A stretch of 64,000 nt of DNA from a virus (Duplodnaviria; Caudoviricetes), in the IMG/VR virus record IMGVR_UViG_3300021400_000128, positions 1 to 64,000 of that record; one strand, given 5' to 3'. Made by a program: the position numbers and the translations under genes. Under the pieces are notes generated by a model. The model had not been told where the DNA came from and did no database searches. It saw nothing but the letters and a program-made list of their open reading frames with translations. Positions 46,529 through 63,159 of this stretch are shown here, piece after piece. The number at the start of each line of letters is the position of its first letter. Position 1 is the stretch's first letter.

Positions 46529-46606
46529 GACTTAAAGAAAAAGAAGACAGTCACTATTATTGACTGCCTTCTTAGGGTCTTTTTGTCACTAAATCTATTA
46601 TAACAT
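46529..46606 (-). promoter_or_regulatory. class B promoter + leader terminator (before tape measure)
   Basis: TGTTATAAT, then AGACCCT-AAGAAGGCAGTCA-loop-TGACTGTCTTCTT-TTTCTTTAAGTC. Confidence 0.8.
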
Positions 46607-46743
46607 ACTTAGTTATTCTCTTTATGTTTTGATTTCAACGTCATATATAACTTATTCTTTAGCGTTTACTATTTTAAATATCACAATGTTGTTCTATTTA
46701 CACTTTCCCTGTGCTTGATATAATTGAATTGCTGGAGGATAAT

Positions 46744-47241
46744 ATGAAAAAATACACATTACTTTTTGTTTTATTTATGTTGTTGATATCGGTAAGAATA
46801 GGATTTTGTCAGACTTGTGATTGTGAAGTTTTACAAAATGAAATCGACAATCTTAATATGCAAATTGACATATTGAAAGGTTATCGTTTTCAATTTGAAA
46901 ACGATAACCTTATTTCTTTTGGTGATTATGAAATATTATTTAAAGATATATATACATTAGAAGATAAAGATGATAAATATTTATCTATATTCATTCAGTA
47001 TTATAACAATTCCAATAAATCGAATAATTTTGAAAATTCAATTGGTTATAGATTTTTTGAAAATGGAATTGAATTAGATGTTGCATCTAAGCGTACAGAT
47101 AGATATATAAAGCCTGGAGCAAATATTCATATAAATTTAGTTTATAAATTACATTCTTCAAATGGAGTTATAGAATGTGATTTGTGGTCATTAGATAATC
47201 CTGATATTGTTCATTCCAGTGTTATTTATAATCTTGAATAA
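46744..47241 (+). CDS. secreted/membrane accessory protein (possible superinfection-exclusion moron)
   Basis: MKKY signal peptide; very AT-rich; Ig-like F.NG.EL..IKPGA domain; opposite strand, followed by hairpin 47290-47310. Confidence 0.65.
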   Translation: MKKYTLLFVLFMLLISVRIGFCQTCDCEVLQNEIDNLNMQIDILKGYRFQFENDNLISFGDYEILFKDIYTLEDKDDKYLSIFIQYYNNSNKSNNFENSIGYRFFENGIELDVASKRTDRYIKPGANIHINLVYKLHSSNGVIECDLWSLDNPDIVHSSVIYNLE

Positions 47242-47318
47242 ATCCGGATCATGCTTATGCCGGTGTAATTTACAAGTTCAAATTATCAAATAGCCGGGTA
47301 TCCCGGCTATAATTTTGT

Positions 47319-47555
47319 CTATTCCCTTTTTTGATACAAATCCCATTCCGTCAGTGTCTCTTCATCATCCAGAATATCGGTTAACTTACATCCGAGCACG
47401 TTGCACAGCTTTAGCAGGATCGAAAATTCCGCCTTGTTGAGGTTGCGCCATCCCTGCTCGTAAGACCTGATTGTCTGAGTGTTGACACCTATCAGTTCCG
47501 CGATATCACTTTGCGTTAACGCTTTAGCTTTGCGTATTTCTTTCAATTTTGACAT
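47319..47555 (-). CDS. XRE-family HTH regulator
   Basis: LKEIRK...LTQS..AE..GV...TI..YEQG.R..NKA. Confidence 0.85.
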   Translation of the reverse strand: MSKLKEIRKAKALTQSDIAELIGVNTQTIRSYEQGWRNLNKAEFSILLKLCNVLGCKLTDILDDEETLTEWDLYQKRE

Positions 47556-47623
47556 TGTTGTGTTATAATTTTTTCATGAGCAGGGGATTGGGATTTTTCA
47601 ATCCCGCACCCCTATATTCTAAC

Positions 47624-47710
47624 TTAGCAAGCCGTCCGTGTGATTATCAGTGCCACTAACACCGCAATCAACAGGGCGGTTACTATTTTATATAATAGTT
47701 TTCTGCTCAT
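47624..47710 (-). CDS. 28-aa hydrophobic peptide (type I toxin-like; not in the ORF track)
   Basis: MSRKLLYKIVTALLIAVLVALIITRTAC; GAGAGGG RBS; TTGACA-16-TATAAT promoter at 47829-47802. Confidence 0.6.
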   Translation of the reverse strand: MSRKLLYKIVTALLIAVLVALIITRTAC

Positions 47711-47919
47711 GATGTCAAAGTACCCTCTCTCTGAATCTAACCTCGCCTGAACGTTAGATATCTTCGATTCAGTATTTCGAATGTTTCCAATCGATACAAT
47801 AATTATATCACTTAAGTTATATTTGTCAATGAAATAATGGATTATTTGGAGAGTTTTGTACTAATTTGTAACTATAAATAAAAATAAGCCCGTTTAGACG
47901 GGTTTATTTTTATAGATTT

Positions 47920-48348
47920 TTAGGTATGCCTTTTTTCAACAGGATAAATCTGATGATTCGGGTCTATCCACAAAACTTGAAGTAACGATTCTATTTTTAT
48001 ACACCAAATTCGATATGCAGCATTAACACGAAAAGACCATAGTTCATCTATATCGTCTAAATTGATTTGTGCAATACGTTTTTGTGCGAATTTTGCAAGC
48101 CGATTTACTGCAATCGGATGATCTCTTTTTGAATCTGCTGTGAGTTCTTTCCACCCTCGAAATTCCGTTGACTTTAACATGTCTGCAACATCAGAGAATT
48201 GTAGATCACTTCTCAAACCGGATGGATATTCAATATCAGAATCAAAATATGCAAAACTCCAGAATACCTTATTTTTATCAAAAGACGAACCATTATCTTT
48301 GGGTATTTTTTCTTGTTGCTTATTTGGAAGATTCTTAGCTTTTTTCAT
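47920..48348 (-). CDS. putative toxin (RelE-like) paired with a Panacea antitoxin
   Basis: L.SFR....RI......QVLWIDP.H.IYP; directly downstream of the DUF4065 gene. Confidence 0.6.
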   Translation of the reverse strand: MKKAKNLPNKQQEKIPKDNGSSFDKNKVFWSFAYFDSDIEYPSGLRSDLQFSDVADMLKSTEFRGWKELTADSKRDHPIAVNRLAKFAQKRIAQINLDDIDELWSFRVNAAYRIWCIKIESLLQVLWIDPNHQIYPVEKRHT

Positions 48349-48351
48349 ACG

Positions 48352-48807
48352 TCAATCAAGTAAACTAATTGCACTATAATAATCAGCCATCGAATCCCAT
48401 GATATTTCCTTGTTTCCTCGTTCTGCTGGTGCTAAACCTATCCGCGCAATTCTCCAAGGGTCTTCAGAATGAGATAAATCAATCAACCATTGTGAAGATT
48501 TATCTCCGTAATGTTCAAGAACAGCATCAATAGTCTCTCGTCCAATGGCATCGATATTTTCAATATTTCCATCGAATGTATCTTCTTTTACATAATACAT
48601 ACCGCGATGTTTATAAAAAAGTGCAGGAATAACAGGCCCATTTGCCCATGCTTCGATGCGTTCTTGAAATAGTGGACGATCGTCCCATACAAGAGACCAT
48701 GCTTGACAATAATACGCTAATTTTTCGAGTTTCATAGCAGTTATCTCACCAAGCTTATTTAATATATATTTTGCCACATCAAATACCGTTGCTTTCGATT
48801 GTTCCAT
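48352..48807 (-). CDS. Panacea (DUF4065/SocA-like) antitoxin
   Basis: VFDVAKYIL, MKL.KL.YY.QAW, LF...IEAW.NGPV, L..LSH.E.PW signature. Confidence 0.85.
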   Translation of the reverse strand: MEQSKATVFDVAKYILNKLGEITAMKLEKLAYYCQAWSLVWDDRPLFQERIEAWANGPVIPALFYKHRGMYYVKEDTFDGNIENIDAIGRETIDAVLEHYGDKSSQWLIDLSHSEDPWRIARIGLAPAERGNKEISWDSMADYYSAISLLD

Positions 48808-48943
48808 TGTACACCTACCCACAACATATTTTATATTTCAACTGTTATTATATACAGAATTCATTTGTTTTTTATAGGTAGATTGTAAAAACTATAAACA
48901 AATGTAATAACTTAATAAAATAAAGGACTCGTTATTAAGTCCT

Positions 48944-49246
48944 TTATTTCCTTTTGTACCATTTGTGCCAGTTCTGGATCTCCTTTGCTTCGTCATATTC
49001 ACCGCGTCTGTAGCCATGGAATCCGCGCCTTGCTTTTCGGATATACAGATACTCTTTCAGCGTGAAAATGCTGTACATATCACAGATATCATACGTCTGA
49101 AAGAAACGCTTATGCGCAGCAGGAGCGAGAGTATCATCAAGTTCCATCCGGTCAATTTTGTGCCGAAACATCCTTTTTGCTTTCCGCTTATCTTCTTTGT
49201 GCTTTCGATCACCGCAGTACGGCGTTTTCTTGTATGACCTGCTCAT
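48944..49246 (-). CDS. basic hypothetical protein
   Basis: MSRSYKKTP..DICD..W.KWY.RK; GAGG RBS. Confidence 0.7.
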   Translation of the reverse strand: MSRSYKKTPYCGDRKHKEDKRKAKRMFRHKIDRMELDDTLAPAAHKRFFQTYDICDMYSIFTLKEYLYIRKARRGFHGYRRGEYDEAKEIQNWHKWYKRK

Positions 49247-49304
49247 AGTATCCTCTCTGATTAATTATAACAGGATGCTTACAATGTTTGCGTCTATCGT
49301 TTCG

Positions 49305-49823
49305 TCAACAATTCACTTTATTAGCTTTCCTTGCTTTTTTCATCAAATTACGTGATGGTCTGTAGCCTTTTTCTCTGCAAACATCCAAAATTATCTTAGC
49401 TTCTGCGGGTAAGGTTCCTTCTCTGATGCCGATAGAGCCATGTGTTACAAAAATACTTTGATTATCTTCACTTATATTTAGATCGTGGCATATCTCATGA
49501 TACGTCATTTGTACACTCATACCGTTTTTGATAATTGTATAAGTTCCTCTATGCCGTTTTTTGACAGAAAAAGTACCAGCTAATTTTCTGTAGTAAACCT
49601 GAAGCTGCATTTTTTTGTACTTGTATTGATATAATGGGAAATCTTCCGGGCTTACCAACATTTTTCCATCTTCGGTGAATATTCCCTTGCCGGTTTCATC
49701 TGTGTGACATTTTTGTTTTGACAGGATTCTTATACCAAGATCTAATTGTTCATATTTAATCAACGTCCAGCTGTATATAGAACCTTCTTCTTTAAAATCA
49801 TTTATTACGTATTTTATATTCAT
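49305..49823 (-). CDS. hypothetical protein
   Basis: 172-aa ORF in an accessory operon. Confidence 0.6.
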   Translation of the reverse strand: MNIKYVINDFKEEGSIYSWTLIKYEQLDLGIRILSKQKCHTDETGKGIFTEDGKMLVSPEDFPLYQYKYKKMQLQVYYRKLAGTFSVKKRHRGTYTIIKNGMSVQMTYHEICHDLNISEDNQSIFVTHGSIGIREGTLPAEAKIILDVCREKGYRPSRNLMKKARKANKVNC

Positions 49824-49850
49824 GTTATTCTTTTTTGATGTGTTCTCTGT

Positions 49851-50204
49851 TCAACAATCGCTAATCAAATCCAGATCCGCTCCACGATAATCAACAAAAA
49901 CACCATTTGCCGATAAAACTTCTCTATTCGCTTTGATGAAACTCACAAAGCGAATAGCAGATTCATAAGCATCCCGTATATCCTGAATTTCCCAACCGTT
50001 GAATAAATTATCACCTGGCTCCTCTTCGCCGTTTTCAATTTTTTGGTTGTTTTTTTCTATCGTTTCATAAGCTGATTTAGTCCACGCTGCAACATTGGAT
50101 AACGCAGAGAGCATCATTCTCCTCCGTTTGTCAACTTTGTGGTAGTTGTGTATTTTACGGATTTCTTCTTCATCACGAGCGAAACCAAATTCATCCACTA
50201 TCAT
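49851..50204 (-). CDS. hypothetical protein
   Basis: 117-aa coupled ORF. Confidence 0.6.
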   Translation of the reverse strand: MIVDEFGFARDEEEIRKIHNYHKVDKRRRMMLSALSNVAAWTKSAYETIEKNNQKIENGEEEPGDNLFNGWEIQDIRDAYESAIRFVSFIKANREVLSANGVFVDYRGADLDLISDC

Positions 50205-50205
50205 C

Positions 50206-50820
50206 TCATTTCCCTTCTTTCAAAATATCAAGAGCCCATTCATATGCTTCAGCCGTTACACGATCCGGGATATACCCTTCACCACCTTCATTAACCACAT
50301 TGTTCAAATTTTCTTGCCAGAGTTTCACTTCTTTTTCTGTCAGCAATTTTCCGTTCATTGCAATTTCTTTTTCAGCTTTCGCAATGATGGATTTTGCAGC
50401 CCTGATATGGGACGCTTTGTTTTCCGCTTCGTCTTTTGCAATTACTTCTGCTATCTCTTCTGTCTGACCTTCAGCGATAACTTCTTCAAAAAATTTTTCA
50501 ACATTTGTAATAATTTCAGGATCGGTCAGTACAACATTTAGTCCTTCGATTTTTTTGCTTCCTTCCGGGAATACTTCTTTTGACCCAGTTTGAAACAATC
50601 TCCGATATTCACGTGCACTCCAAAGCTTCAGTCCGCAGCCGATGTTTTCTTCATGTTTCACACCGTCAACAAAAATCGCAATGTAATTGTGATTTACTAA
50701 TCTTTTTCCAATGGTGACAATATAACCATCAGAATCTATTGTTTCATCTTGAAGAAAGACATTGTATTCTGCTTCGATTTTGTATTGATGCCCATTTTTC
50801 GTCCATTCAAATGTTTTCAT
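50206..50820 (-). CDS. hypothetical protein
   Basis: Likely start MKTFEW after GAGGTG; C-terminal N.V.NEGGEGYIP motif. Confidence 0.7.
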   Translation of the reverse strand: MKTFEWTKNGHQYKIEAEYNVFLQDETIDSDGYIVTIGKRLVNHNYIAIFVDGVKHEENIGCGLKLWSAREYRRLFQTGSKEVFPEGSKKIEGLNVVLTDPEIITNVEKFFEEVIAEGQTEEIAEVIAKDEAENKASHIRAAKSIIAKAEKEIAMNGKLLTEKEVKLWQENLNNVVNEGGEGYIPDRVTAEAYEWALDILKEGK

Positions 50821-50896
50821 ATTATCACCTCGTTCCATCAGCTATCTTTAATTATTCACAAATGCGGTCATTTGCAAAGTGTATTCGTCAAATTAC

Positions 50897-51325
50897 TCAC
50901 CAATTAAGAACTAAACTCCGCTCCGGGGTGAATCCCTGATCGATAATGTTCTGCGTCCAGGTTTGCAAGAATTGATCGCCATCATGGAGCCAAGTGGACA
51001 AATAGCTGATTCTGCCGTTCTGGTTTCTGAAATACTCAACATTCATTCCCATGTAATCATTTCTGAAAGACAGAGGAAGAATCGATTTTTCAGCTTCGTT
51101 GACACTAAATGTTATTTCAGGATCACGCATTGCATCGCCATTCATTTCACCATAATGAGCAATGCTGTACACAGGGTTTCCCTCAAAGTCGTTGTAGCCG
51201 ATGTTTTCAATTACCAGATCCATGTACCCGTTTGCCGTGAATTTAGCATATCCGCCGTTTTCATTGACCTTTTCGATGAAAGGAATCAGTCTTTTATAAT
51301 TGGTTTTGCCACTCTTGATTTTCAT
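50897..51325 (-). CDS. DUF6908/DUF1249-like protein
   Basis: GYMDL.IE, SIAHY...NGD.MRDPE, FL..W..NI..QG. Confidence 0.7.
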   Translation of the reverse strand: MKIKSGKTNYKRLIPFIEKVNENGGYAKFTANGYMDLVIENIGYNDFEGNPVYSIAHYGEMNGDAMRDPEITFSVNEAEKSILPLSFRNDYMGMNVEYFRNQNGRISYLSTWLHDGDQFLQTWTQNIIDQGFTPERSLVLNW

Positions 51326-51469
51326 GATTACTCCTTTTCTTCTTGACTGTAATGTACTGACAGCGATTCTTTTTTACATCAATCGACTTAATTCATCAGT
51401 GGTCAAAATTCCATAATTGTATTTGCATTTAAATTCAGCCTTGAACCGAACTTATTAGCAACAGAAAAG

Positions 51470-52510
51470 TCATATTTTTTTTACTTCTTCTTTTCCTTCA
51501 ACGACCTCTCGGTTTACCATTTCGACAAATTTTTCTATCTCTTTGTAATCCGGTTTTTCCGGCAGGTCAGATTTCTTCGCTGCCTTATTCATGTTTGAGT
51601 CAAGCTCATTCACCATCTCAAAGAACTCTGGAATAAGCAGTCCTTTTTCGTTCATATACTTCCCGTTACGGATATCCATCAATAAGTCATGGTCAGCTAC
51701 CCTGTGAGTGTGCATTGTGCCCGTTTCAAACAGTTCAGTACACATCTTCAGCAGTCTGACAAGGTGCATAGCATGCTTGTTGACCTTGTTATGAGTAATT
51801 GCATCTGCTGCGCGGCGGCCAATCTTACTGTAGTCCTTTACGATGTTGTTCATCTCGGACCACATACACTTGTAATCCCGCAGCGGATAATGATGCAGGT
51901 TGACGTCCATAAAAATCTCAGTTGACATACCATCTTGTACGGCTTTATCGACGTACAGTCTGATTGCGTCTTCCGGATAGTCAAAGAACTTCTCGTGGAA
52001 GGAAAACTCTGCGTTCTGAACCGAACGAAGGATGTGAACTTCCTGCTGTTCCTGATCAAGCGTGCGTGCTGTTTTGTTGTCCAGGCGTGATAACTGTGAT
52101 CGCGCATATCCACCGAAAGTATGGAGAATTCGCTTTGAGATAAACATGTTCCTTTTCCGCAACAGCATTACACCGATCCGGTTTGCAATGATATATTGAT
52201 CAGGATCAAGGAACAATAACTCAAGCACATTTGGGTTTGCTTCGGTAAGCAGCTTGACAACTTTATTGAACGAATAAATCACAGTGTCAGTCTGATTGTC
52301 AACAACTTGCTCAAAAGGCTTCCCCAGCAGGATTTCGGACGCAGAATTCAATGCGATACCCCTGATGTCAATGTCTGAGCCTTCGACATTTGTACCGTAG
52401 GCATAAGATCCACCGGGACACAGAAGGATAATGTTATCCCCAAGCGGTTCTGCTTTAAGGAAGTCGTATTCTTTTTGCTGTAAAAGTTTTTCGAAATTTT
52501 CTTTATACAT
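51470..52510 (-). CDS. Pol-beta-type nucleotidyltransferase (YcgL/RlaP-like)
   Basis: GGSYAYGT...SD.DIRG, NPN.LE.L, F.GYA..Q, KHAMHL.RL, L..IR.G, LP..PD. Confidence 0.8.
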   Translation of the reverse strand: MYKENFEKLLQQKEYDFLKAEPLGDNIILLCPGGSYAYGTNVEGSDIDIRGIALNSASEILLGKPFEQVVDNQTDTVIYSFNKVVKLLTEANPNVLELLFLDPDQYIIANRIGVMLLRKRNMFISKRILHTFGGYARSQLSRLDNKTARTLDQEQQEVHILRSVQNAEFSFHEKFFDYPEDAIRLYVDKAVQDGMSTEIFMDVNLHHYPLRDYKCMWSEMNNIVKDYSKIGRRAADAITHNKVNKHAMHLVRLLKMCTELFETGTMHTHRVADHDLLMDIRNGKYMNEKGLLIPEFFEMVNELDSNMNKAAKKSDLPEKPDYKEIEKFVEMVNREVVEGKEEVKKI

Positions 52511-52524
52511 ATTACTCCTTTCGG

Positions 52525-52740
52525 TTATAGAACAAGTCTGCTGCTGCCACCGGAAATTTCATCGACCACATCCCAGTCTGTCAACGTAGATTCTGGAATC
52601 GTCTTGCCTTTTCCTGCTGCATCGTTAATAGTTTCAAAATAGAGAAAGATTTCTCCTTTTACATTTTGAGTGAAAAACCTTTTGATACGAATTCCGTTCA
52701 GTTTTTTATCTTTATCAATTGTTCGCAGCATCATAGCCAT
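52525..52740 (-). CDS. hypothetical protein
   Basis: Likely start MAMMLR after AGGAG. Confidence 0.5.
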   Translation of the reverse strand: MAMMLRTIDKDKKLNGIRIKRFFTQNVKGEIFLYFETINDAAGKGKTIPESTLTDWDVVDEISGGSSRLVL

Positions 52741-52965
52741 TTTTCTTCTCCTTATTCTTCTTTTTTGCAAATCAAAAGAGCCTCTTTTGGCAAAGACTCT
52801 TTTGATTAAATGGTTAAACAACTACCCTTTTTTCTTTGCTTCGACCATACGTTCGACGATCCAGGTGGCAGAATTGATCTTCAACTTGCTACTGGAAATT
52901 TCTTCGACCACATCCCAGTCAATGTAGATTCGGGGATGTCTTTCTATTTCATTTCTCACCTCCCA

Positions 52966-53406
52966 TTAGATACAGGAAACAAGCGCGAACACTTTTTCGA
53001 TTTTCGCCGTCAACTCAGCGTTCTTATCCTGAAGTTCGTGTTTCTGCTTTTCGTACAGGTCAAGCATGAATTTCAGGCTTTCGATTTCGGTTTCGAGATC
53101 ATCAACCTTCTGACGAAGAGCAATGTTATCCTCAGCGATACCGCGAAATTTCCAGTACAGTTCTGAGAACCAGACGTTCACGGTCTTACCAGTGGAAAGG
53201 TTGATCTCAAACCGATCATTCAGGTCGCAGATATAGTCATAATAATGACCTTCAGCAGTTGACCGGTAAATCGGATATCCGGCTCTCTGTGAGCACTCCT
53301 CATCCTTGCTGTAATCAGTTGGGAAAATCTGATCGACGATAGCCCAGGCTTCCTTGCGGCTGTTAACTTCAATGCGGGTTTTGGGTGTGGCGATGGCAGT
53401 GTTCAT
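52966..53406 (-). CDS. hypothetical protein with C-terminal coiled coil
   Basis: First gene after a class A promoter; GGAGG RBS; AW...IFPTDY..D...S.RAGYPIY..YICDL..R.E.N. Confidence 0.75.
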   Translation of the reverse strand: MNTAIATPKTRIEVNSRKEAWAIVDQIFPTDYSKDEECSQRAGYPIYRSTAEGHYYDYICDLNDRFEINLSTGKTVNVWFSELYWKFRGIAEDNIALRQKVDDLETEIESLKFMLDLYEKQKHELQDKNAELTAKIEKVFALVSCI

Positions 53407-53409
53407 AAG

Positions 53410-53504
53410 ACCTCCGTGATTCAAATTTGTTTAATCAACTTACATTTATTATTATATTAGTTTTTATATATTTGTCAATGTCTATTATTATTTTTATTAC
53501 ATTG
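53410..53504 (-). promoter_or_regulatory. class A promoter cassette
   Basis: AATGTAATAAAAA..TTGACA-16-TATAAT..TGTAAGTTGA..TTTGAATCACGGAGG. Confidence 0.8.
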
Positions 53505-54744: not shown

Positions 54745-54750
54745 TGCTTA

Positions 54751-55143: not shown

Positions 55144-55157
55144 CCTTATCCTCCGTT

Positions 55158-55230: not shown

Positions 55231-55264
55231 AAAAAATTTCTATTTTATTTTTTTTGACAAGAAT

Positions 55265-55296
55265 AAAAAACCGGAGTATATCACTCCGGTTATTTG
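55265..55296 (-). terminator. terminator after the major tail gene
   Basis: AACCGGAGT..ACTCCGGTTTTTT. Confidence 0.65.
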
Positions 55297-55318
55297 TTGG
55301 TTTACTTTGGTTATCTGA

Positions 55319-56107
55319 TTAACCAGCGGTGCCGTTCTGCACAGAGCCAAATCCTTTAACGTAGTTTGCGTTGGAAACTTCCGCAATTGCAAGATATTTT
55401 CCAGAAGCAACTTCAAGTTGATCTGCTCCATCCCAAAATTCCCATCCTTCAACAACACGTTCATTGTAATCAGGAGCTTCAGGCTGTGCATCGAAAACTT
55501 TCCACAGGTATTTATTGTTCTGCGCAGGGTTCGGATTAACATCAACCTTTACCTTACCACTTTCACCAGCTTTAATTGTGATTGTCAGATTTTTAACAAC
55601 CTTTTCAGGCAGTTCACCGTCATCATCAAACTCAAGCGTTTCAAGATTGAAAGTTCCATCAATGAACTTACCGACAACATTCAGATTACCGGACATAGTA
55701 AGTGTTTCACCGCCGCCGCCTTGAATATCAGTCACTTCTACAGCACAAGTGAAAAGACGTGCAGGAACAATTGTAGTAATCGGAGTACCGTCTTCTTCGA
55801 TCTTGAAATCAGTACGCAGATATTCAACCAGAGCATTAGAACCGACTTTACGGTTGCGTCCGATTTCATAAATGGTCATGATTGCTTCCTGATCATTCCA
55901 TACATCAGTATCAAAAGCAAAGCTTGATTCATAACGAGTGATGGAAGGTGATGCTTCGTCCTCATGAATGTACACTTTGCTTTCTACCTGTGCATTCGGG
56001 CTTTCATCGAGACTGTTGAAACCAGTTCCGCAGAGTGCCCATACTTTATTTGCTTTCGTGCCGATATTCAGATAATCGGCAACTGCGCTTCGGGTAAGTA
56101 ATGCCAT
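55319..56107 (-). CDS. major tail (tube) protein with C-terminal extension
   Basis: G.GF.SLDE.PNAQ....YI, ..GGGE....G.L..VG....GTF motifs. Confidence 0.85.
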   Translation of the reverse strand: MALLTRSAVADYLNIGTKANKVWALCGTGFNSLDESPNAQVESKVYIHEDEASPSITRYESSFAFDTDVWNDQEAIMTIYEIGRNRKVGSNALVEYLRTDFKIEEDGTPITTIVPARLFTCAVEVTDIQGGGGETLTMSGNLNVVGKFIDGTFNLETLEFDDDGELPEKVVKNLTITIKAGESGKVKVDVNPNPAQNNKYLWKVFDAQPEAPDYNERVVEGWEFWDGADQLEVASGKYLAIAEVSNANYVKGFGSVQNGTAG

Positions 56108-56129
56108 CTGTACCTTCTCCTTTTCCTAT

Positions 56130-56204
56130 GACTTAAAACAAAAAGAAGGCAAATCCTTTTATGGACTGCCTTCTTAGGGTCTTATCCTTTTCTTATTATA
56201 ACAT
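56130..56204 (-). promoter_or_regulatory. class B promoter + leader terminator (before major tail protein)
   Basis: TGTTATAAT, then AGACCCTAAGAAGGCAGTCC..GGATTTGCCTTCTTTTTGTTTTAAGTC. Confidence 0.8.
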
Positions 56205-56267
56205 ATTTAGTTACTGTTTTACATCTTTACTCATACAATGCACTATATTTATATATTTATTAATAGT

Positions 56268-56705
56268 TTATCGTTTCGGCTCCAGATATGTGATCCGACA
56301 ACCGAACAAATATTTAGCCACAGTGTCATCCATTCCTGATATAGCTGGCATGTTCGGCATATTTTCGACCTTTACCACAACGCATCCTTTGAAATAAGGA
56401 TAGTTCTTTTTTTCTTCCTGTTCTTCTATCCATTCCATAAGCTTTTCAGCATCAAACATGATTTCCGCATTCTCTTCACTGTTCACATCCACGGTATTCA
56501 GCGGCATATATTGAATTAAAGAAAAGTCATACGCTTTCAGTTTATCGCCGTTCAGATACACCTTCAGCGCATCGGAAGCGGGGTTTGTCGCAATAGTGAT
56601 ATTGCCATTCTGTGTATCTGAAAAATTAAAGAACAGCCGTTTAATATCTTCATTTTGATATAGCCATTGCCAGACTGCTAAATGTTTGTTCTTACCTTCA
56701 GCCAT
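56268..56705 (-). CDS. tail terminator / completion protein
   Basis: Synteny; W..EQ..KKNYP.F, A.Y.....ITY motif. Confidence 0.7.
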   Translation of the reverse strand: MAEGKNKHLAVWQWLYQNEDIKRLFFNFSDTQNGNITIATNPASDALKVYLNGDKLKAYDFSLIQYMPLNTVDVNSEENAEIMFDAEKLMEWIEEQEEKKNYPYFKGCVVVKVENMPNMPAISGMDDTVAKYLFGCRITYLEPKR

Positions 56706-56707
56706 AT

Positions 56708-57046
56708 TTAATTCAGATCCATCCCATCAATAAAATTCTGCATTTCCTGAACAAAGTAATCTTTCACCGAGGGCATCGCCACCTCATTCCACTTCGCTGT
56801 AGCTAAAGGGTGTTTATCTTTTCTGAAATTCATTCTCAGGTTGTTGTACACTTTATTCGCATATGGGGCGTTATAGATCACGGCATACGGTCTTATTGTT
56901 ACATCGTTGCAAAGCCGTCCGGTATTGTAAGGAATGTAAGGTTCAACGAGCTTTCGCCACGTTTCAGCTGCATGCTTTCCGATTTCCTGATTACCTTTTA
57001 CTTTGCTGATTATTGCATTCTTATCGAAATTTTTTACAAGGGGCAT
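56708..57046 (-). CDS. minor capsid / head-tail joining protein
   Basis: PYIP..TG.L, Y.APYA, HPLA..KW.E motif. Confidence 0.75.
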   Translation of the reverse strand: MPLVKNFDKNAIISKVKGNQEIGKHAAETWRKLVEPYIPYNTGRLCNDVTIRPYAVIYNAPYANKVYNNLRMNFRKDKHPLATAKWNEVAMPSVKDYFVQEMQNFIDGMDLN

Positions 57047-57047
57047 A

Positions 57048-57458
57048 TTAGTGTCCTGTTACTTTCAGATGCGCTGTCTGGGTTAATTTTGTATCGTCAG
57101 AAACACCTTCTACGGTAAAACATTTTCCGGCGTACTTTGTTTTGATATCAGATAATCGTGTTCCGTTTCCAACCTCGTCAGTGATTTCACCTTTCACGAT
57201 CAGGTCTTCAGAAGCGACCTCTGCTTCATACTCAGCAGGGATTCTGACAACATACCGCTCTCCTGTAACAAATGAGTTATTTGATACGGATATCGTTTGT
57301 ACTCTATTAAAAAAACAATCTTCGTAAACAGAGCGATTGTAGCTTGTCTTAGGTCGTCCGTACTCATCTTCTATCTCTGCCCGATGATAGATTGTGATCT
57401 TATCATTCCATACAAGATTTCTATAATGACTTCTCATCTCAGGCTCCCTAAACTGCAT
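57048..57458 (-). CDS. head closure protein
   Basis: ITIY, VRIP, DLIVKGE, H.KV.G; synteny; start uncertain. Confidence 0.7.
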   Translation of the reverse strand: MQFREPEMRSHYRNLVWNDKITIYHRAEIEDEYGRPKTSYNRSVYEDCFFNRVQTISVSNNSFVTGERYVVRIPAEYEAEVASEDLIVKGEITDEVGNGTRLSDIKTKYAGKCFTVEGVSDDTKLTQTAHLKVTGH

Positions 57459-57826
57459 GACAGCAGATAATGACCGTTCGGAGCTTTTTCAAATTGCAGA
57501 TATTCTTCTATCAGGTCATTGATGTGTTTTTCCGCCATATCCAAAGACATGATCGTACCGCTTGCGTAACTAATTGAATATCCGTCATTTCCTTCATGAG
57601 CAATTACCGGAGAATAGTTTTCACTCGCGCTGTCATTATTTCCCATGATACCAATCAGTTCAAACATCAGCCGTTTGACAGGTTCACCGATCTCCTTTGC
57701 ATCGGTAAGTCTGTTAAACGTCCGTCTGTCGATTTTTCGCTTTGCTTTGTAGGCTAAACGATTAAAGACGGTCTCCTCTAATGTTCCACCGTATTTTTGA
57801 TATTCGTCAAAAGTCAGATAGTCCAT
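57434..57826 (-). CDS. head-tail connector
   Basis: YLTF.EY..YGG....F..L...A...ID..TFNR, NDGYSISY. Confidence 0.75.
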   Translation of the reverse strand: MDYLTFDEYQKYGGTLEETVFNRLAYKAKRKIDRRTFNRLTDAKEIGEPVKRLMFELIGIMGNNDSASENYSPVIAHEGNDGYSISYASGTIMSLDMAEKHINDLIEEYLQFEKAPNGHYLLSCSLGSLR

Positions 57827-57879
57827 CAGATTCGACCGCCTTCAATGTAAGGAGTTTTGTAAAATGAAACGCCAGTTGG

Positions 57880-59193
57880 TTACGGCAGTTCAATTCCAGT
57901 CAGGTCAGGAGTCACGGTTGTGGTGATTCCGTTCGCGGTCAGGGTGAAGTTGGTAGCACCAGATGCTAATTCCGCGCCTTTTGCGCCTTCCTTCAGTCCA
58001 AACACGAAGTCGAAATACCATGCAGCACCGACTTTCTTCATTTCAGCCTTCGGCAGTGCGTTACCGTTGAACAGTACGCCTTCCGGAGCATCTTTGCTAA
58101 TACCAACACCAGGAATTTCCATACGTCCGGTGACGTAATGGGTTGTGCTCTGATCGAAACCGAGTTCACTCTTCTGAGTTGTACTGATGAGGTTTGCAGT
58201 ACCCTTCAGTGCAAGTGTAGCCGCCCAATTGGTGTCATCGGTGCGGGTCAGAGCGACCTTTCCGGTAATATTGGTGGTATCAAGAGCAACTGAAAGTCCC
58301 GGATAGGAATAAACACCTTCCTGCATACGGGCAAATTTCAGGTTTGCGCCGGTGGTCTTCAGGATAACGACCTTAGATTCATTGGTCATGGCGACGCAGT
58401 AAATCTGGTCTCCGGTGATTTCGGTAGAACGCTTGCGCGGTTTCCGATCCACTTCGATATTGGTATCGCGCTTGATGAAATAGGTCAGAGCGGACAGCTC
58501 GTCACGATGCATCGGATCATTGGTCAGAATGATCGGACTATAGAAGAAGCCACCGACACCGGAAACACGGCGGGACGGAACGATACGCGCATTACCAATC
58601 ATACCGATTTCACCGTTAATCATCACCTGATTGCCGTACTTATTCCGATCAATGAAGTTCGGGTCTTTGCGGAGCGTGGTGACGTTATCCGGGTGTACAA
58701 GCATAATCATATCGATTACGCCTTCAGCCTGGAACAGACCAATAGCATCGATGACGTTTTCATAACTGATTGCGTTATTAGCATTGAACACATTGCTGGA
58801 ATTCAGCAGCTCAACATGAGCATCCTCATCCAGTTTACCGAGAATAGAATCAGCCATGGATGTGGTTGCCTGTCCGACCGGGTTACCATGCGCGGAAAGC
58901 ACCGCGACATCGGAAATTTCAGTACCGATACCCGCCATTTTTACGGTGTAATCGGCACTTTCAGTACCAAGAGCACGAATCGGAATTTCATCACCTTCCG
59001 CGACTTCTTCAGCCTCGCCATCCCAAACAAAACGGGCAACAGTAATAGTACTGCCCGCACGTCCTGTCAGGGTTCGGTCAAGTGTTGCGTAGGGCAGCAC
59101 AGTAATAGCTTTTTCAAGCTTTGCCTGAATCATATCTCCAATGACTTCAGGATCAATAAGTTTGCTAAGAGTAGTCAGTTCATAGTCCGCCAT
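57880..59193 (-). CDS. major capsid protein (N4-gp56-like) with C-terminal extra domain
   Basis: T.L..LIDPEV..DMI, D.TL.G..G.TITV, EVAEG..I, I.D.AVLS..G.P, GEIG.I...RIV.S, KR...IE.DR. Confidence 0.9.
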   Translation of the reverse strand: MADYELTTLSKLIDPEVIGDMIQAKLEKAITVLPYATLDRTLTGRAGSTITVARFVWDGEAEEVAEGDEIPIRALGTESADYTVKMAGIGTEISDVAVLSAHGNPVGQATTSMADSILGKLDEDAHVELLNSSNVFNANNAISYENVIDAIGLFQAEGVIDMIMLVHPDNVTTLRKDPNFIDRNKYGNQVMINGEIGMIGNARIVPSRRVSGVGGFFYSPIILTNDPMHRDELSALTYFIKRDTNIEVDRKPRKRSTEITGDQIYCVAMTNESKVVILKTTGANLKFARMQEGVYSYPGLSVALDTTNITGKVALTRTDDTNWAATLALKGTANLISTTQKSELGFDQSTTHYVTGRMEIPGVGISKDAPEGVLFNGNALPKAEMKKVGAAWYFDFVFGLKEGAKGAELASGATNFTLTANGITTTVTPDLTGIELP

Positions 59194-59206
59194 TTCTCTC
59201 TCCTCC

Positions 59207-59437
59207 TTAGATTACGCAGATTTTTACGCCTCGCTTCGGTTTTTTCTCCACTGTCTTGTTTTGCGTCTCTGTCTCTGCTTTTACTGGTTTTATTTCTGGT
59301 TTCTTTTCTTCAACAACTGCGGGTTCTTCCGCTTTAACAACAATGTCCGGCATGATTACCGGATCTTCTGCAAACACTTCATCCTGAACAACAACAGGTT
59401 CATCCATATCAAGACTGCTTTTCTTAGCCCTTGCCAT
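59207..59437 (-). CDS. small hypothetical head-region protein
   Basis: GGAGG RBS; lies between scaffold and capsid. Confidence 0.6.
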   Translation of the reverse strand: MARAKKSSLDMDEPVVVQDEVFAEDPVIMPDIVVKAEEPAVVEEKKPEIKPVKAETETQNKTVEKKPKRGVKICVI

Positions 59438-59439
59438 CT

Positions 59440-60294
59440 TTACCTCCCCATCGCTCTCGCGTATTCTTCAGGATGTTCATTGCGATAATTCGCACGTTCG
59501 GCGTATCCCATCTTGTCAAGATCAGCTTTCGTGATCCCTGTTTTCGCTTTCGGTTTATGTTCAGCGGCTTCAACAATGGTGGTTTTCGGTGTGATGTATC
59601 GCTTATGTTCCTTCAGATAGTCCTGTAGGTTTTCGTCAAAGTCGCCATCCATCTGCTCCACTTTGTACTGAACAAATTCCACTGCGTCTCGGTCAACGCC
59701 AGCCTTGATAATGGTGTTCTCGTGCCTGAGTTTTTCAACAGCTTCAAAATTCTCTCGTTTCAACTTTTCAATGGTCTCCTCAAGCTTGTTGTTCTTCACA
59801 CGAAGGACACTCATCTTTTCTTCCATCGTCTGCTGACTTTCACGCCATTTATCGAACTGCTCACGTTCTTCTTTGGAAGGGAGCCTTTTTGCAAGCGCAG
59901 ATTTCAGTGCTTTTTCAAATTCAGCCTGGGTAAAGGTCTTTTCAGATCCTTTTTCCTTATTAGCGGCTTTCACTTGCTTTTCCTTGGCTTTGCGCAGCTT
60001 TTCAAAGAAGGCATCAAGTTCAGCGTCCGTATCTTCGTCGGCTTTTTTCTTTTCCGGTTTATTCGGTTTTTCAGGTTCACTTTCCGGTTCGGATTCCTTT
60101 TCAGGTTCCTCATCGGGTTCATCGTTGGTTTTTGTTTCCGGTTCGTCATCCTGTTCAGCAGGTTCGTTTTCCGGTTCCACGGTTTCTGGTTCTGTCGTTT
60201 CTGTTGGTTCGGTTTCTGTCACTTCAGATTCGATCACTTCATTGACAACAGCATCCAGTTCGTCATCTTCGACGTTTTTATTTTTTTTCGCCAT
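59440..60294 (-). CDS. capsid scaffolding protein
   Basis: Acidic E/P-rich N-terminus, KTFTQAE, coiled coil, C-terminal IT...L.KMGY.ER......PEEY. Confidence 0.85.
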   Translation of the reverse strand: MAKKNKNVEDDELDAVVNEVIESEVTETEPTETTEPETVEPENEPAEQDDEPETKTNDEPDEEPEKESEPESEPEKPNKPEKKKADEDTDAELDAFFEKLRKAKEKQVKAANKEKGSEKTFTQAEFEKALKSALAKRLPSKEEREQFDKWRESQQTMEEKMSVLRVKNNKLEETIEKLKRENFEAVEKLRHENTIIKAGVDRDAVEFVQYKVEQMDGDFDENLQDYLKEHKRYITPKTTIVEAAEHKPKAKTGITKADLDKMGYAERANYRNEHPEEYARAMGR

Positions 60295-60338
60295 GATTTT
60301 TTCTCCCGTTTAAAGCCCGTCGGCATGTACCCGATGAC

Positions 60339-60416
60339 GACTTAAAAGAAAAGAAGGCAGTCATTCTCTGACTGCCTTCTTAGGGTCTCATCGTTCGATT
60401 ACTTGTATTATAACAT
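60339..60416 (-). promoter_or_regulatory. class B promoter + leader terminator (before scaffold/capsid)
   Basis: TGTTATAAT, then AGACCCT-AAGAAGGCAGTCA-GAGAA-TGACTGCCTTCTT-TTCTTTTAAGTC (perfect 13-bp stem). Confidence 0.85.
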
Positions 60417-60590
60417 ATTTTTTATATTTAGTGTAATTGTCAATATTTATGACATATTAATTATAAATTTAGTTATTTCTTATTCACTTTATTGATTTTT
60501 AGTAAAAAAAAAACCACTAAATATAGTGGTTATCTGTAAAAGTCGCTATTTCATCATCATTCAGCATACTACCTCGATTCCGATCCTGAA

Positions 60591-60995
60591 TTATGCCGGG
60601 ATAGCAACCCCGGCAGCTTCGATCTTGCGAAGAATGGTTTCCTTGCGGAGCCCTTCGCGGACACCCTTGACGCCCATCTTTTGAGCATAAGCAATCAGCT
60701 CCTGATACACTTTGCAGCCATCTTCAAATCTCTTTTTAGATGCTTCGATTTCTGCAAGGTATTCCTCTTTTGTCATAGTGCAGGATTTAGGAATCCAAAC
60801 TGATTTTGTTCCGTCCCATTCGCCATCAATGCTCGAACATTCGATTAGCACTTTATATGCTTTTTCTGTTTCATGAATCACATCAGCTTGATTCGTGAAA
60901 AAATTCAAGTTATAGTGAAATTCACTTTTTAGATTTAAAAGGAACCATTTTTTTATATAAACTGTCTTAATTTCGGTGTTGGCGTTATTATTCAT
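60591..60995 (-). CDS. hypothetical accessory protein
   Basis: Single gene between a class A promoter and a terminator (60505-60531); ETEKAY, WIPKS motifs. Confidence 0.75.
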   Translation of the reverse strand: MNNNANTEIKTVYIKKWFLLNLKSEFHYNLNFFTNQADVIHETEKAYKVLIECSSIDGEWDGTKSVWIPKSCTMTKEEYLAEIEASKKRFEDGCKVYQELIAYAQKMGVKGVREGLRKETILRKIEAAGVAIPA

Positions 60996-60999
60996 GATA

Positions 61000-61094
61000 C
61001 CCTCCGTGATTCAAATTATTGTTTTCAACTTACAAATATTATTATATGAGTTTTTATATATTTGTCAATGTTTTATTTAATTTTTATTACATAT
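61000..61094 (-). promoter_or_regulatory. class A promoter cassette
   Basis: TTGACA(61068-61063)-16-TATAAT(61046-61041), with the same leader and RBS as 53410-53504. Confidence 0.8.
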
Positions 61095-61240
61095 TAATAC
61101 AAAGAAAAAGCCCGTATTTCAGGGCAAAGATTACATTACTGCTTCAAAAAGGTGCTTACTGGAGCATAATGAAAAGAATTTCAATAAAATCATTTGGATG
61201 TTTTTTTATAATATCCTTCATTTCATCTCCTTGAATTTTT

Positions 61241-62092
61241 TTAATCCCAATTGAAATTCTTTATTTCCATAACACCTGATGGCTCTGTTATTAATTCATC
61301 TGCAATTTTGAGCATTTCATTTTCAAGCTGCTCATATTTAGGAGATCCCATTTTATATTTTCTTTGCTCCTCATATACTTTGTGCATAACTGTTTCTTTT
61401 ATTGTAAATGAATTTTTTGTGTGAAATTGTACTTCAAAGAGTTTTCCATTTTTATTTTGAAGCGTGACATTAATCCCTTTATATGCCCAAGGCTTTGTCC
61501 AAAAGTTTTTAACTTGTATAAGGTTATATCCGGATTCTTGATATGCCTTTAAAGCTTTATTTACATCTTTACCAAATGATTCACTGTTTACTTCATTGGT
61601 ATAGCGAACAAGATCGTTCATTTGAGATGTGTCATTTTTCCCGGCAAGTCGATTTCTTTTTTGTGTAGCAGATGCTCTTGACTTACGTCTGTTTTTTTCT
61701 CCAAGCAGCGGAGCATGGATCATATCTGAAATTCTTTTAACATCTGCCGTAATTTCAGGTTCATTTTTCATTGCTGAATTGTATTCATTCATAAATGTAA
61801 ACTCATCATTTTTTGAAATGTTATTCATTATTTTATTTCCATCATCATCATAATTATTATTTAATATGTGCTGTATTCGATGTCGATCAATATAATGTTT
61901 TGTTTTGGAATTAATTACCCTTTGTCGTGCTTTTTCCTGTGCCGTTTTCTGTGCTTTTAGTTTTCGCTTGTAATCAGTTACCCTGATATATTTCCTTTTC
62001 ATAGCCGGTTTGCCATCATCTCGTAGTATTGGGTTACCGTCTTTATCTTTTCGGATAACCAGTATCGATTTGTAATCTCTGCTTCCACCCAT
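61241..62092 (-). CDS. RelA/SpoT-like small alarmone synthetase (toxSAS / Apk2-like (p)ppNpp synthetase)
   Basis: R.KS..S...K, DLVRYT, VKN.W, YKGIN, FEVQFHT..S..IKE...H..YE..R. Confidence 0.8.
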   Translation of the reverse strand: MGGSRDYKSILVIRKDKDGNPILRDDGKPAMKRKYIRVTDYKRKLKAQKTAQEKARQRVINSKTKHYIDRHRIQHILNNNYDDDGNKIMNNISKNDEFTFMNEYNSAMKNEPEITADVKRISDMIHAPLLGEKNRRKSRASATQKRNRLAGKNDTSQMNDLVRYTNEVNSESFGKDVNKALKAYQESGYNLIQVKNFWTKPWAYKGINVTLQNKNGKLFEVQFHTKNSFTIKETVMHKVYEEQRKYKMGSPKYEQLENEMLKIADELITEPSGVMEIKNFNWD

Positions 62093-62104
62093 ATATCACC
62101 TCGT

Positions 62105-62166
62105 TTAAATTAAAAGAAGGCTGAACACACAATCAGCCTTCTTAGGGTCTCTATGGGTAATTATAA
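62105..62166 (-). promoter_or_regulatory. class B promoter + leader terminator (before synthetase)
   Basis: TATAAT, then AGACCCT-AAGAAGGCTGA-loop-TCAGCCTTCTT-TTAATTTAA; compensatory stem change relative to the other copies. Confidence 0.75.
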
Positions 62167-62167
62167 A

Positions 62168-62464: not shown

Positions 62465-62478
62465 ACAATTTCTCCTTT

Positions 62479-63155: not shown

Positions 63156-63159
63156 AATA

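Follow-up and report, generated by a model that had tools for sequence, protein, structure and literature searches.

Leaders, genes and islands of the late region

The window, the whole 64,000-nucleotide stretch analysed here, carries five short leaders on its minus strand, all laid out in the same order: a promoter with a -10 element only, a 15-nt box, a hairpin, a U-tract, a ribosome site and the gene. The source is a 137-kb uncultured gut phage, temperate by its CI-like repressor and integrase. The features are listed below.

38367..46502, minus strand: tape measure gene, 2711 aa, first gene of a ~21-kb tail block without a further leader
46532..46602, minus strand: leader copy 1, before the tape measure gene (ATG 46502); 63.5 bits, E 4e-14; TGtTATAAT with -10 at 46602-46597, box 46580-46566, hairpin 46573-46541, U-tract and TTTAAG to ~46532
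within 47802..63231, minus strand: interleaved accessory islands, context outside the leader family
55159..55226, minus strand: leader copy 2, before a 130-aa gene in the chaperone position (ATG 55143); 56.9 bits; TGgTAAAAT with -10 at 55226-55221, box 55205-55191, hairpin 55198-55168, then U-tract
56134..56200, minus strand: leader copy 3, before a major tail-like gene (ATG 56107); 60.4 bits; TGtTATAAT with -10 at 56200-56195, box 56182-56168, imperfect hairpin 56175-56143, then U-tract
57880-59193, minus strand: major capsid gene (PF25209), driven from copy 4 in the block 57880..60294
59440-60294, minus strand: gene in the scaffold position, in the unit driven from copy 4
60342..60412, minus strand: leader copy 4, before the scaffold-position gene (ATG 60294) and the major capsid gene; 61.4 bits; TGtTATAAT with -10 at 60412-60407, box 60388-60374, hairpin 60381-60351, then U-tract
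62105..62165, minus strand: leader copy 5, before a 283-aa gene (ATG 62092); 59.1 bits; TATAAT 62165-62160 without TG, box 62150-62136, hairpin 62143-62114

All five leaders lie where an earlier note on this DNA had placed them. Their boxes are exact minus-strand copies of the 15-mer AGACCCTAAGAAGGC (46566-46580, 55191-55205, 56168-56182, 60374-60388 and 62136-62150), as compared to 0.07 matches expected by chance in the window, and none of 100 shuffles reaches five. The -10 hexamer is TATAAT in copies 1, 3, 4 and 5 and TAAAAT in copy 2, and TGn is absent before copy 5 only; base by base, this agrees with the extended TG in four copies and the single TAAAAT described before. The spacing between the -10 element and the box, given in the note as 10-19 nt, is indeed variable, and its measured range is 9-18 nt (16, 15, 12, 18 and 9 nt in copies 1-5). 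As had been noticed, the 3' part of the 15-mer, bases 8-15 (AAGAAGGC), pairs as the 5' arm of the hairpin, which has 11-13 bp in the window copies and is followed by the U-tract and TTTAA. In a terminator scan, four of the five copies belong to the highest-ranking terminator-like sites in this region; the scan gives copy 1 a hairpin of 13 pairs with the tail TTTCTTTAAG, and copy 4 one of 13 pairs with 6 GC. Copy 3 has 13 pairs (-16.7 kcal/mol), copy 4 is accompanied by a second small conserved hairpin at ~60340-60305, and copy 5, with a distal stem unlike that of copies 1-4, carries the compensatory change GGCTGA/TCAGCC that the note had reported.

The genes behind the leaders correspond to those named earlier (tape measure, tail chaperone, major tail, scaffold/capsid): we find the tape measure gene, the chaperone-position gene, a major-tail-like gene behind copy 3 (phrog_3099), and the scaffold-position and capsid genes, in whose block a 76-aa gene is also driven from copy 4. 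The RelA/SpoT-like label of the copy 5 gene holds, residues 106-263 of its product, a 283-aa protein beginning with an MGG-leader, matching a small alarmone synthetase (8vx3, E 8.8e-12). Accessory islands between structural genes, likewise postulated from the sequence, are seen between late units with sigma-A consensus promoters and ordinary terminators: perfect TTGACA/TATAAT pairs lie at 63231-63203, 61068-61041, 53478-53451 and 47829-47802, and examples of the closing terminators at 60531-60512, 53659-53633 and 47902-47889. One ordinary terminator (55291-55269) stands just upstream of the copy 2 promoter. Because such terminators lie just upstream of copies 2 and 4, the genes of these two copies need the local promoter for their expression; many leaders lack an additional terminator upstream.

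A covariance-model scan of the whole 136,915-bp phage genome returns 14 terminator-type leaders (44.7-63.5 bits), all 14 on the minus strand and intergenic, besides three variant copies of a translational type. The earlier count of five is therefore right for the window, the genome total being 14 leaders plus the three variants. The units behind them encode holin and M23 endolysin, NrdG/NrdD, terminase, portal, scaffold and capsid, tail tube and tape measure, and further units a ParB-like nuclease, DUF5662 and DUF4417. Late units close at ordinary terminators, with 14 restarts, each at a new leader; we propose that the terminated islands explain this need for separate starts. In the early and lysogeny regions (1-46 kb and 114-137 kb), the scan finds no terminator-type leader, in line with the note, which saw none before early genes. 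The note's restriction to late genes is too narrow: since the NrdG/NrdD, ParB-like nuclease, DUF5662 and DUF4417 units also lie behind leaders, the regulon is better termed middle/late.

In the three variants, at 97.27k, 95.99k and 72.66k, half of the box is predicted to pair as the 5' side of a hairpin in which the Shine-Dalgarno sequence and the AUG are hidden; no terminator is present. The same combination of box half and ribosome-site hairpin recurs at 60.30k in a relative, so that the class comprises four examples in all, three in this genome and one in the relative. The box may accordingly be viewed as having a dual use, as an arm of a terminator or as an arm that hides a ribosome site.

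Conservation of the box and hairpin

The box has the consensus (A/G)GACCCUAAGAAGGC. In the modeled structure, its 5' half (..CCCU) is single-stranded, and the pairing partner of its 3' half AAGAAGGC is a GYCUUYUU further downstream. We analysed covariation in 58 distinct copies from related ruminant-gut phages, 53 of which have a TATAAT-like hexamer 6-28 nt upstream of the box. The commonest gap is also the shortest, 6 nt, at which the box begins at +1, so the box is always transcribed; in the 19 copies whose box begins at +1, seven unpaired nucleotides are left ahead of the arm. No -35 element is present (2.60 matches, as compared to 2.58 in shuffles), and the promoters are -10-only, often of the extended -10 form. 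The motif scan of the full genome and of related phages that the note had suggested extends the family past the window and finds the box kept in relatives. It is identical in a 148-kb relative of 65-80% nucleotide identity, despite differences in promoter spacing, loops and distal stems, and is retained in phages with 67% and 56% capsid identity (43-58 bits; 34 and 28 bits) that were left out of model building.

Across the 58 copies, 89.8% of cells are paired, with compensatory double changes in 125 cells, a result that none of 500 shuffles reaches; slid controls give only 42-63% pairing as compared to 89.8% in the true register. The hairpins have 10-17 pairs (median 13, median -17 kcal/mol) and are followed by a median of 6 U in 9 nt, the predicted form of an intrinsic terminator, with a GC-containing hairpin and then a U-rich tract on the transcribed strand. 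Bases of the 5' arm are invariant and those of the 3' arm drift from C to U, producing G.U pairs (13 and 14 cases at two positions); this asymmetry argues for pairing in the sense-strand RNA, with the 5' arm alone under a further constraint on its sequence. Loops and distal stems are free to vary, the box-to-U-tract distance varies by ~10 nt, and conservation falls on the unpaired lead and the basal 5' arm. These comparisons support both an RNA-level hairpin structure under selection and a box conserved beyond what pairing requires, in line with the earlier view that structure and box are each conserved. The comparison of a covariance model with Rfam, also suggested earlier, yields no family: the leaders have no match at gathering thresholds, and up to an E-value of 5 just chance-level sRNA rows appear. 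Judged by its sequences, the leader is a well-supported, uncatalogued RNA motif, with 58 distinct copies and strong covariation.

Transcript evidence comes from assembled gut metatranscriptome contigs of a single study. These contigs cover the late genes and not the islands, and are deepest over the 57880..60294 scaffold/capsid block. RNA spanning one terminator, that of copy 4, exists, one contig running 60381-60266 across the terminator and into the gene. RNA contigs of two samples stop at the same base, 56159, in the loop of copy 3.

A candidate RNA gate and its alternatives

On balance, we lean toward reading the leader as an RNA gate that would be opened by a factor binding the single-stranded box, locally and not processively. 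Host RNA polymerase would start at the -10-only, often extended -10, promoter, and the box would be transcribed first, or by ~22 nt downstream of the start. By default, the 3' half of the box would close the 11-17-bp hairpin, which with its U-tract would form an intrinsic terminator ~45-60 nt from the start site; in the three variant copies, the box half would instead close a hairpin burying the Shine-Dalgarno sequence and start codon. A sequence-specific factor acting in trans, for which a protein is likelier than an RNA, would bind the emerging single-stranded box and hold the 5' arm, such that neither the terminator nor the ribosome-site hairpin could form and the unit would be expressed. 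We infer both termination at the hairpin and its relief, and a leaky constitutive terminator would be compatible with the sequence alone. Relief would be local to each leader, which would explain why every late block after a terminated island has its own copy; the support for local over processive relief is indirect. An antisense RNA, one of the factors that the note had considered, is unlikely, since nothing complementary to the box occurs elsewhere in either of two full genomes. Among the ~90 phage ORFs scanned with Pfam or PHROGs, a set that leaves out ~130 small ORFs, we found no binding factor and no CAT/RAT, ANTAR, Q, NusG-like or sigma domain.

Processive antitermination of the Q or AlpA type, in which a protein would bind the box as double-stranded DNA beside a promoter-proximally paused polymerase, board it and carry it past the adjacent and every later terminator, seems to us unlikely. 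Its appeal lies in the lambda PR'-tR' layout, a constitutive-looking, host-type promoter with an immediate terminator upstream of late genes. Moreover, two proteins of this kind, Q21-like BrrG in the Bartonella gene transfer agent (bioRxiv 10.1101/2024.11.20.624540) and Pseudomonas AlpA (PMC7969949), work from promoter-near DNA sites and serve more than one locus, and the phage encodes an 86-aa HTH_17 protein (20222-20482), of the excisionase/AlpA-like helix-turn-helix kind, that is conserved in the relative. Yet a DNA element and -10-like pause in fixed register are not found: the gap from -10 to box ranges over 6-28 nt, the distance from box to U-tract shifts by ~10 nt, the box sequence TAAGAA misses the final T of a good -10-like pause element, and the box never lies upstream of +1. 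A processive complex would have no need of 14 restarts after ordinary terminators, and the same box appears to gate ribosome sites that have no terminator. The note had offered RAT-type or N/Q antitermination; local occupancy of the 5' arm fits better, and the processive N/Q type is disfavored because late units end at ordinary terminators, have their own leader each, and share a box that also gates ribosome sites.

We give no more credence to a constitutive element without a switch, whether an insulator against island read-through, a leaky attenuator, or a 5' stabilizer or processing site, with the box kept for a host ribonuclease or the ribosome. Such an element would suit the many leaders that, having no separate upstream terminator, also end the preceding unit; the contig end shared at 56159 could mark a processing site, and AGAAGG and AGAAAGG look like the complement of the Firmicute 16S rRNA 3' tail. 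A promoter ahead of its own strong terminator would nonetheless be wasteful if unrelieved, neither terminator function nor 16S pairing explains the invariant unpaired CCCU, and a temperate phage would be harmed if holin and endolysin leaked unconditionally from a good TATAAT promoter. It is very improbable that the short terminated RNAs are products in their own right, a ~45-60-nt family with a common 5' seed and terminator tail that would act in trans as a decoy or regulator of host RNAs: every copy adjoins a ribosome site and a gene needing expression, several without another promoter, the variant class has no terminator, and no target was found in the phage, even though the predicted shape (conserved 5' single strand, terminator hairpin and U tail) is that of a small RNA and the genome has 14 such promoters. 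Least credible is a DNA-level signal, either a dimeric operator formed by the inverted repeat or a hairpin of single-stranded DNA that would serve replication, nicking or packaging. All copies do share one strand, as strand-specific DNA signals would, and single-stranded DNA hairpins tolerate G.T pairs, but every copy is coupled to an upstream -10 and to a downstream U-tract, ribosome site and start codon, and the unequally conserved arms and variable spacing speak against a dimeric operator.

Extending the local RNA gate to the whole phage is a more tentative step. Possibly, though we stop short of calling it probable, one single-strand RNA-binding factor of an unrecognized family times the whole middle/late program, acting at 14 terminators and three ribosome-site hairpins through an 11-15-nt box. 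With similar reserve, we suggest that such a dispersed, dual-mode (transcription and translation) riboregulon would replace the single Q, N or late-sigma switch in a clade of large temperate gut phages. The whole morphogenesis and lysis program appears to be placed behind many identical gates, an architecture that would allow early or accessory islands with strong promoters and terminators of their own to be inserted between virion genes with late expression still coupled, and that may account in part for the assembly of mosaic 130-150-kb temperate genomes. The box is a ready handle for finding the putative factor, and a leader that is short, portable and off by default, with one key to open it, could serve as a genetic part.

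Comparison with known antitermination systems

For phages of Gram-positive gut bacteria, what is known of late timing concerns mainly RinA/ArpU/Ltr-type activators, and antitermination is known chiefly from lambdoid phages. The lambdoid PR'/tR' (6S RNA)/Q module resembles our leaders in its host-type, constitutive-looking promoter and close terminator, with lysis and virion genes beyond, and is likewise a default-off gate in a temperate phage. In contrast to it, there are 14 gates per genome here and not one or two; transcription includes the conserved element, which overlaps the terminator 5' arm and whose spacing from the -10 varies; the ~90 scanned ORFs include none recognized as a Q or AlpA family protein; and the layout argues against processivity, the same box apparently gating translation as well.

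In the BglG/SacY/LicT RAT and ANTAR (EutV) leaders (PMC3369931, PMC9981650), the recognition element also overlaps the terminator 5' arm, binding and terminator are mutually exclusive, relief acts locally, and several leaders can share one factor. The phage leaders differ in that the recognized part appears single-stranded, the process is late phage expression and not metabolism, and no CAT_RBD or ANTAR domain was found among the ~90 scanned phage ORFs. A RAT-type alternative antiterminator hairpin of ~29 nt was rejected, as a box at +1 in 19 copies leaves 7 unpaired nt and no upstream partner. Part of the box, CCCUAAGAAGG, may resemble the lambda nutL boxB sequence; the N-nut boxB type, with its conserved loop and arginine-rich peptide, is ruled out by the freely varying loops and distal stems. 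Lambda N-nut (boxA/boxB), HK022 put and Tn916 canT (PMC11658703) similarly have an RNA signal just past the promoter of a mobile element that governs terminator passage. Those systems are processive, with one or more folded RNA hairpins separate from the terminator, whereas here the loops are free, the conserved bases are unpaired or belong to the terminator arm, and each unit needs a copy to itself. If it works as read here, the leader gate would be a many-copy variant of known antitermination switches.

Extent and anatomy of the leader family

The window is the first 64 kb of a phage record in IMG/VR (136,915 bp, direct terminal repeats, 40% G+C). No GenBank phage is closely related to it, and it looks temperate because it encodes a repressor and an integrase:

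20779–21438, plus strand, CI-like repressor
21699–22652, plus strand, tyrosine integrase

Gut samples of goat, sheep and bovine origin yielded relatives. An Oscillospiraceae genome bin contains one capsid homologue, and the capsid homologues P0002, P0004, P0008 and P0013 are on contigs of 85–133 kb. The 148-kb relative, a contig assigned to a goat-jejunum genome bin, is clearly a related phage, and its conserved genes share only 65–80% nucleotide identity with ours. As a single-protein query in IMG/VR, TerL returned one close fragment and nothing else.

Five leaders had been described in the window, each with a -10 promoter, a conserved 15-mer (the box), a terminator hairpin and a U-tract ahead of a gene, and the sequence bears this out. 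The exact box, AGACCCTAAGAAGGC (as RNA, 5'-AGACCCUAAGAAGGC), occurs five times, always on the minus strand, which also carries ∼85% of the window ORFs; 0.07 copies are expected by chance, and none of 100 shuffles reached five. Upstream stands TATAAT or TAAAAT, preceded by TGn in four copies; the box follows as stated, after a gap that we measure as 9–18 nt and not 10–19 nt. Box bases 8–15 (AAGAAGGC) form the 5' arm of an 11–13-bp hairpin, which is followed by a U-tract with terminal TTTAA, a Shine-Dalgarno sequence and a start codon, and the distal stem of copy 5 differs with its pairing kept, again as described. Four of the five hairpins were among the strongest terminator-like sites in a consensus scan of 46–63.5 kb. 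A second small hairpin (GUCGUCAUCGGG..CCGACGGGC) lies downstream of the leader 4 terminator (window 60305–60340, minus strand), and every relative examined retains it in its scaffold leader.

The count of five proved too low for the whole genome. A genome-wide scan for the box, proposed in the earlier note, found 10 exact and several diverged copies, all on the minus strand, and a covariance model built from 58 distinct leader copies retrieved 14 full-length leaders at 44.7–63.5 bits (46.5, 55.2, 56.2, 60.4, 62.1, 67.6, 71.5, 75.0, 76.2, 78.2, 90.0, 91.5, 94.6, and 113.3 kb), with none within 1–46 kb or 114–137 kb. On the opposite strand the model recognized only the palindromic stem, with much lower scores. 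The genome has 16 minus-strand occurrences of the core CYCTAAGAARG, each of them between genes, and no plus-strand occurrence. A comparison with Rfam, likewise proposed, gave no leader match at gathering thresholds or relaxed E-values.

Selection on hairpin and box

Further leader copies were taken from IMG/VR fragments, metagenome contigs and the 148-kb relative, and pairing was tested on the 58-sequence alignment with a 13-pair helix that we specified. Across the 58 copies, 89.8% of cells are paired, and both sides have changed in 125. The covariation score is 0.417, compared to 0.160 in shuffles (reached by none of 500) and 0.06–0.10 with a slid partner; the five distal pairs are each realised by between four and six pair types. 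The 5' arm is the box and hardly varies, and the 3' arm drifts from C to U with G.U pairs kept (13 and 14 cases at two positions). The inverted repeat could also be read as a dimeric DNA operator, which would constrain both arms equally, yet the arms are constrained unequally; this unequal drift points to pairing in the sense-strand RNA, with an extra sequence constraint on the 5' arm alone. On this comparative evidence, selection maintains the leader hairpin as an RNA structure. Two other readings of the box and T-tract, a T7-like phage polymerase promoter and an SPO1-like middle promoter, were rejected in view of the variable spacing and the covarying stems.

Of the 58 copies, 53 have a TATAAT-like hexamer upstream (45 perfect, 29 with TGn). 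No -35 element is present, the best match averaging 2.60 of 6 positions versus 2.58 in shuffled flanks, and we therefore regard these as -10-only promoters. The gap from hexamer to box has its mode at exactly 6 nt, which places box base 1 at +1, and extends to 28 nt; since it is never shorter than 6 nt, the box always falls within the RNA, independent of promoter register. Predicted terminated products are 42–59 nt, counted from the box start.

In the 148-kb relative, a single strand carries all 11 exact boxes and all 17 cores. When orthologous leaders are aligned pairwise (tape measure, chaperone, tail tube, scaffold, portal unit and holin), the -10 and box stand out as islands of identity, and spacers, loops and distal stems diverge with compensating changes. 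Outside the model-building set, a phage with 67% capsid identity has five leaders, and L158, a relative with 56% capsid identity, has two, before the scaffold gene and before terS, the latter with the variant box AGACCCTGCGAAGGC. Selection thus acts on the box itself. The relatives with 50–52% capsid identity (L159, L162 and L163) lack the box, and hence supply no variant boxes for correlation with a protein.

Genes behind the leaders, transcripts and islands

The genes behind the leaders are, in order of transcription from 113.3 to 46.5 kb (minus strand):

113.3 kb, holin and M23 endolysin
94.6 kb, NrdG and NrdD
91.5 and 90.0 kb, DUF5662 and DUF4417 proteins and a ParB-like nuclease
box leaders, several proteins beginning MGG
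75.0 kb, probable small terminase subunit
71.5 kb, large terminase
67.6 kb, portal unit
62.1 kb, small-alarmone-synthetase-like MGG protein
60.4 kb, scaffold and capsid
56.2 kb, tail tube
55.2 kb, chaperone
46.5 kb, tape measure and the whole tail block

The earlier label of “late” is essentially right, with some nucleotide-metabolism genes among them; the early and lysogeny regions (a Cro-like gene, ERF recombinase, replisome organiser, antirepressor, and the many small genes across the record ends) are free of leaders. In at least six of the genes behind box leaders, the coding sequence opens with ATGGGYGG. The gene reported as RelA/SpoT-like, behind leader 5, encodes a 283-aa protein starting MGGS (61241–62092, minus strand), whose residues 106–263 do match a small alarmone synthetase (8vx3, E 8.8e-12). 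An HD_4 protein of (p)ppGpp-hydrolase type (62479–62934, minus strand) lies in the island just upstream, and the two look like a toxic synthetase with a hydrolase partner. The genome also encodes an MGG-leader ADP-ribosyltransferase (PF03496) and an ADP-ribosylglycohydrolase (PF03747), at 95052–95948 and 99265–100053, as well as two RNA ligases and a polynucleotide kinase (3673–4737 and 117367–119409). The large terminase is matched by two ORFs, of 439 and 223 aa (genome 67649–68320, 68346–69994, 70209–71528 region), split by an IS200/IS605 TnpA–TnpB pair and the neighbour of the leader at 67.6 kb; the region could be duplicated or interrupted. TnpB (OrfB_IS605) genes lie at 97318–98514, 125164–126294 and 68346–69584. 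Structured repeats (..CCCCTGCCTTTAGGCATGGGGAGTGTCAA) adjoining TnpB genes (window 11168–11476; genome 76683–76872, 97232–97317, and 125069–125163) are probably IS605 ends or guide RNAs.

Gut metatranscriptome runs contain this stretch of DNA. Their contigs cover 54.3–60.4 kb, most deeply over the capsid gene and with the accessory islands uncovered; such contigs cannot give starts, ends or levels, and gaps in their cover prove nothing. One contig spans 60381 (inside box 4) to 60266 (in the scaffold gene), crossing both hairpin and U-tract, and none of the assembled contigs extends upstream of a box. The contigs agree with starts near the boxes and with the existence of read-through RNA. In two samples of one study, contigs stop at the same base of the hairpin 3 loop (56159); a processing site, an artefact of reverse transcription or coincidence could account for this.

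The islands, accessory gene blocks between late units, are headed by perfect TTGACA/TATAAT promoters with a shared conserved leader of their own:

63231–63203, minus strand, island promoter (window)
61068–61041, minus strand, island promoter (window)
53478–53451, minus strand, island promoter (window)
47829–47802, minus strand, island promoter (window)
∼134.1k, 132.7k, 111.6k, 86.1k, 77.2k, and 74.45k, further island-type promoters (genome)

They have a conserved upstream flank, TGTAATAAAAATAA, and share the leader GTAAGTTGA ... AATCACGGAGG; an ordinary terminator usually precedes them, and accessory or early islands lie downstream. Promoters and shared leader constitute a second dispersed regulon. 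A further module joins a strong promoter, a ∼28-codon hydrophobic peptide ORF (MSRKLLYKIVTALLIAVLVALIITRTAC), a hairpin and a 78-aa XRE helix-turn-helix gene (window 47556–47919 and 47319–47555, minus strand); it recurs in L158 (1235–1762), directly upstream of the terS leader, and may be a small toxin with its regulator.

Proposed mode of action, candidate factors and known systems

Ordinary GC-rich terminators close the islands, and others follow late units, for example at 55291–55269 (tail tube gene) and 53659–53633 (chaperone block). Late transcription thus seems to stop there and to resume at the next leader, which would be unexpected with a generally terminator-resistant polymerase (lambda Q or N) and fits relief specific to the box hairpin. 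The many leader copies would follow, since late units are interrupted by terminated islands. A second, translational mode is suggested by copies in which a -10 and the core CYCUAAGAARGG occur without a terminator (97.27, 95.99, and 72.66 kb; 60.30 kb in the 148-kb relative). When folded, these leave CYCU unpaired and AAGAAGG opens the 5' arm of a hairpin with the same topology as in the leaders, with the Shine-Dalgarno sequence in the 3' arm and the start codon under an outer stem. The same recognition element thus leads into two kinds of inhibitory hairpin; these four cases are supporting evidence, not proof. A DNA-level mechanism accounts poorly for such dual use, which is readily explained if a binder occupies the single-stranded box and prevents the 5' arm from pairing.

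A phage antisense RNA is an unlikely binder, because the complement of the box is missing outside the leaders in both full genomes, where only chance 8-mers, mostly coding, were found. When ∼90 ORFs were scanned with Pfam and PHROGs, none showed a domain of a known antiterminator, sigma factor or RNA-binding regulator; neither Q and NusG-like nor CAT and ANTAR domains turned up in these ORFs. Two non-structural genes are common to our phage and L158, for a 60-aa protein (134146–134328) and the XRE protein (47319–47555), and only the former is clearly present in the 148-kb relative, the latter having marginal matches (E 0.002–0.004). The 60-aa protein is predicted to fold as one helix and four strands (pLDDT 82), with nothing significant in the PDB (Foldseek best E 0.97; VIA best Z 4.3), and a guessed Hfq/Sm-like fold found no support in these structure searches. 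A 48-aa ORF directly upstream of the L158 terS leader resembles this 60-aa protein only weakly (hhalign probability 43%). A ribbon-helix-helix-like 117-aa protein (113399–113752; NikA-like, E 0.02) just upstream of the first leader was set aside, its orthologue being absent from the 148-kb relative. We regard these candidates as weak leads, and a host-encoded factor is possible.

The leader feature is real and under strong selection. On balance we lean towards antitermination, with a factor at the single-stranded box, as the best available reading; within it, processive action of the N/Q type is less likely, and so is an antisense RNA. The leaders follow the logic of lambda PR'-tR'-Q, in which a constitutive-looking promoter and an immediate terminator precede the late genes of a temperate phage, but the leaders lack the fixed DNA register and pause element of the Q type. 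RAT- and ANTAR-type leaders are closer in anatomy, with the recognition element likewise overlapping the terminator 5' arm; unlike in the RAT type, the alternative hairpin cannot form. Compared to known antitermination families, the leaders have no conserved loop or Rfam match, and no family protein among the scanned ORFs. The cis-acting processive RNAs put and canT (PMC11658703) differ from them in both fold and processivity. The family is thus probably a variant of conditional termination control, set apart by the number of copies (14+3), by the dual mode and by how well comparison between phages supports it.
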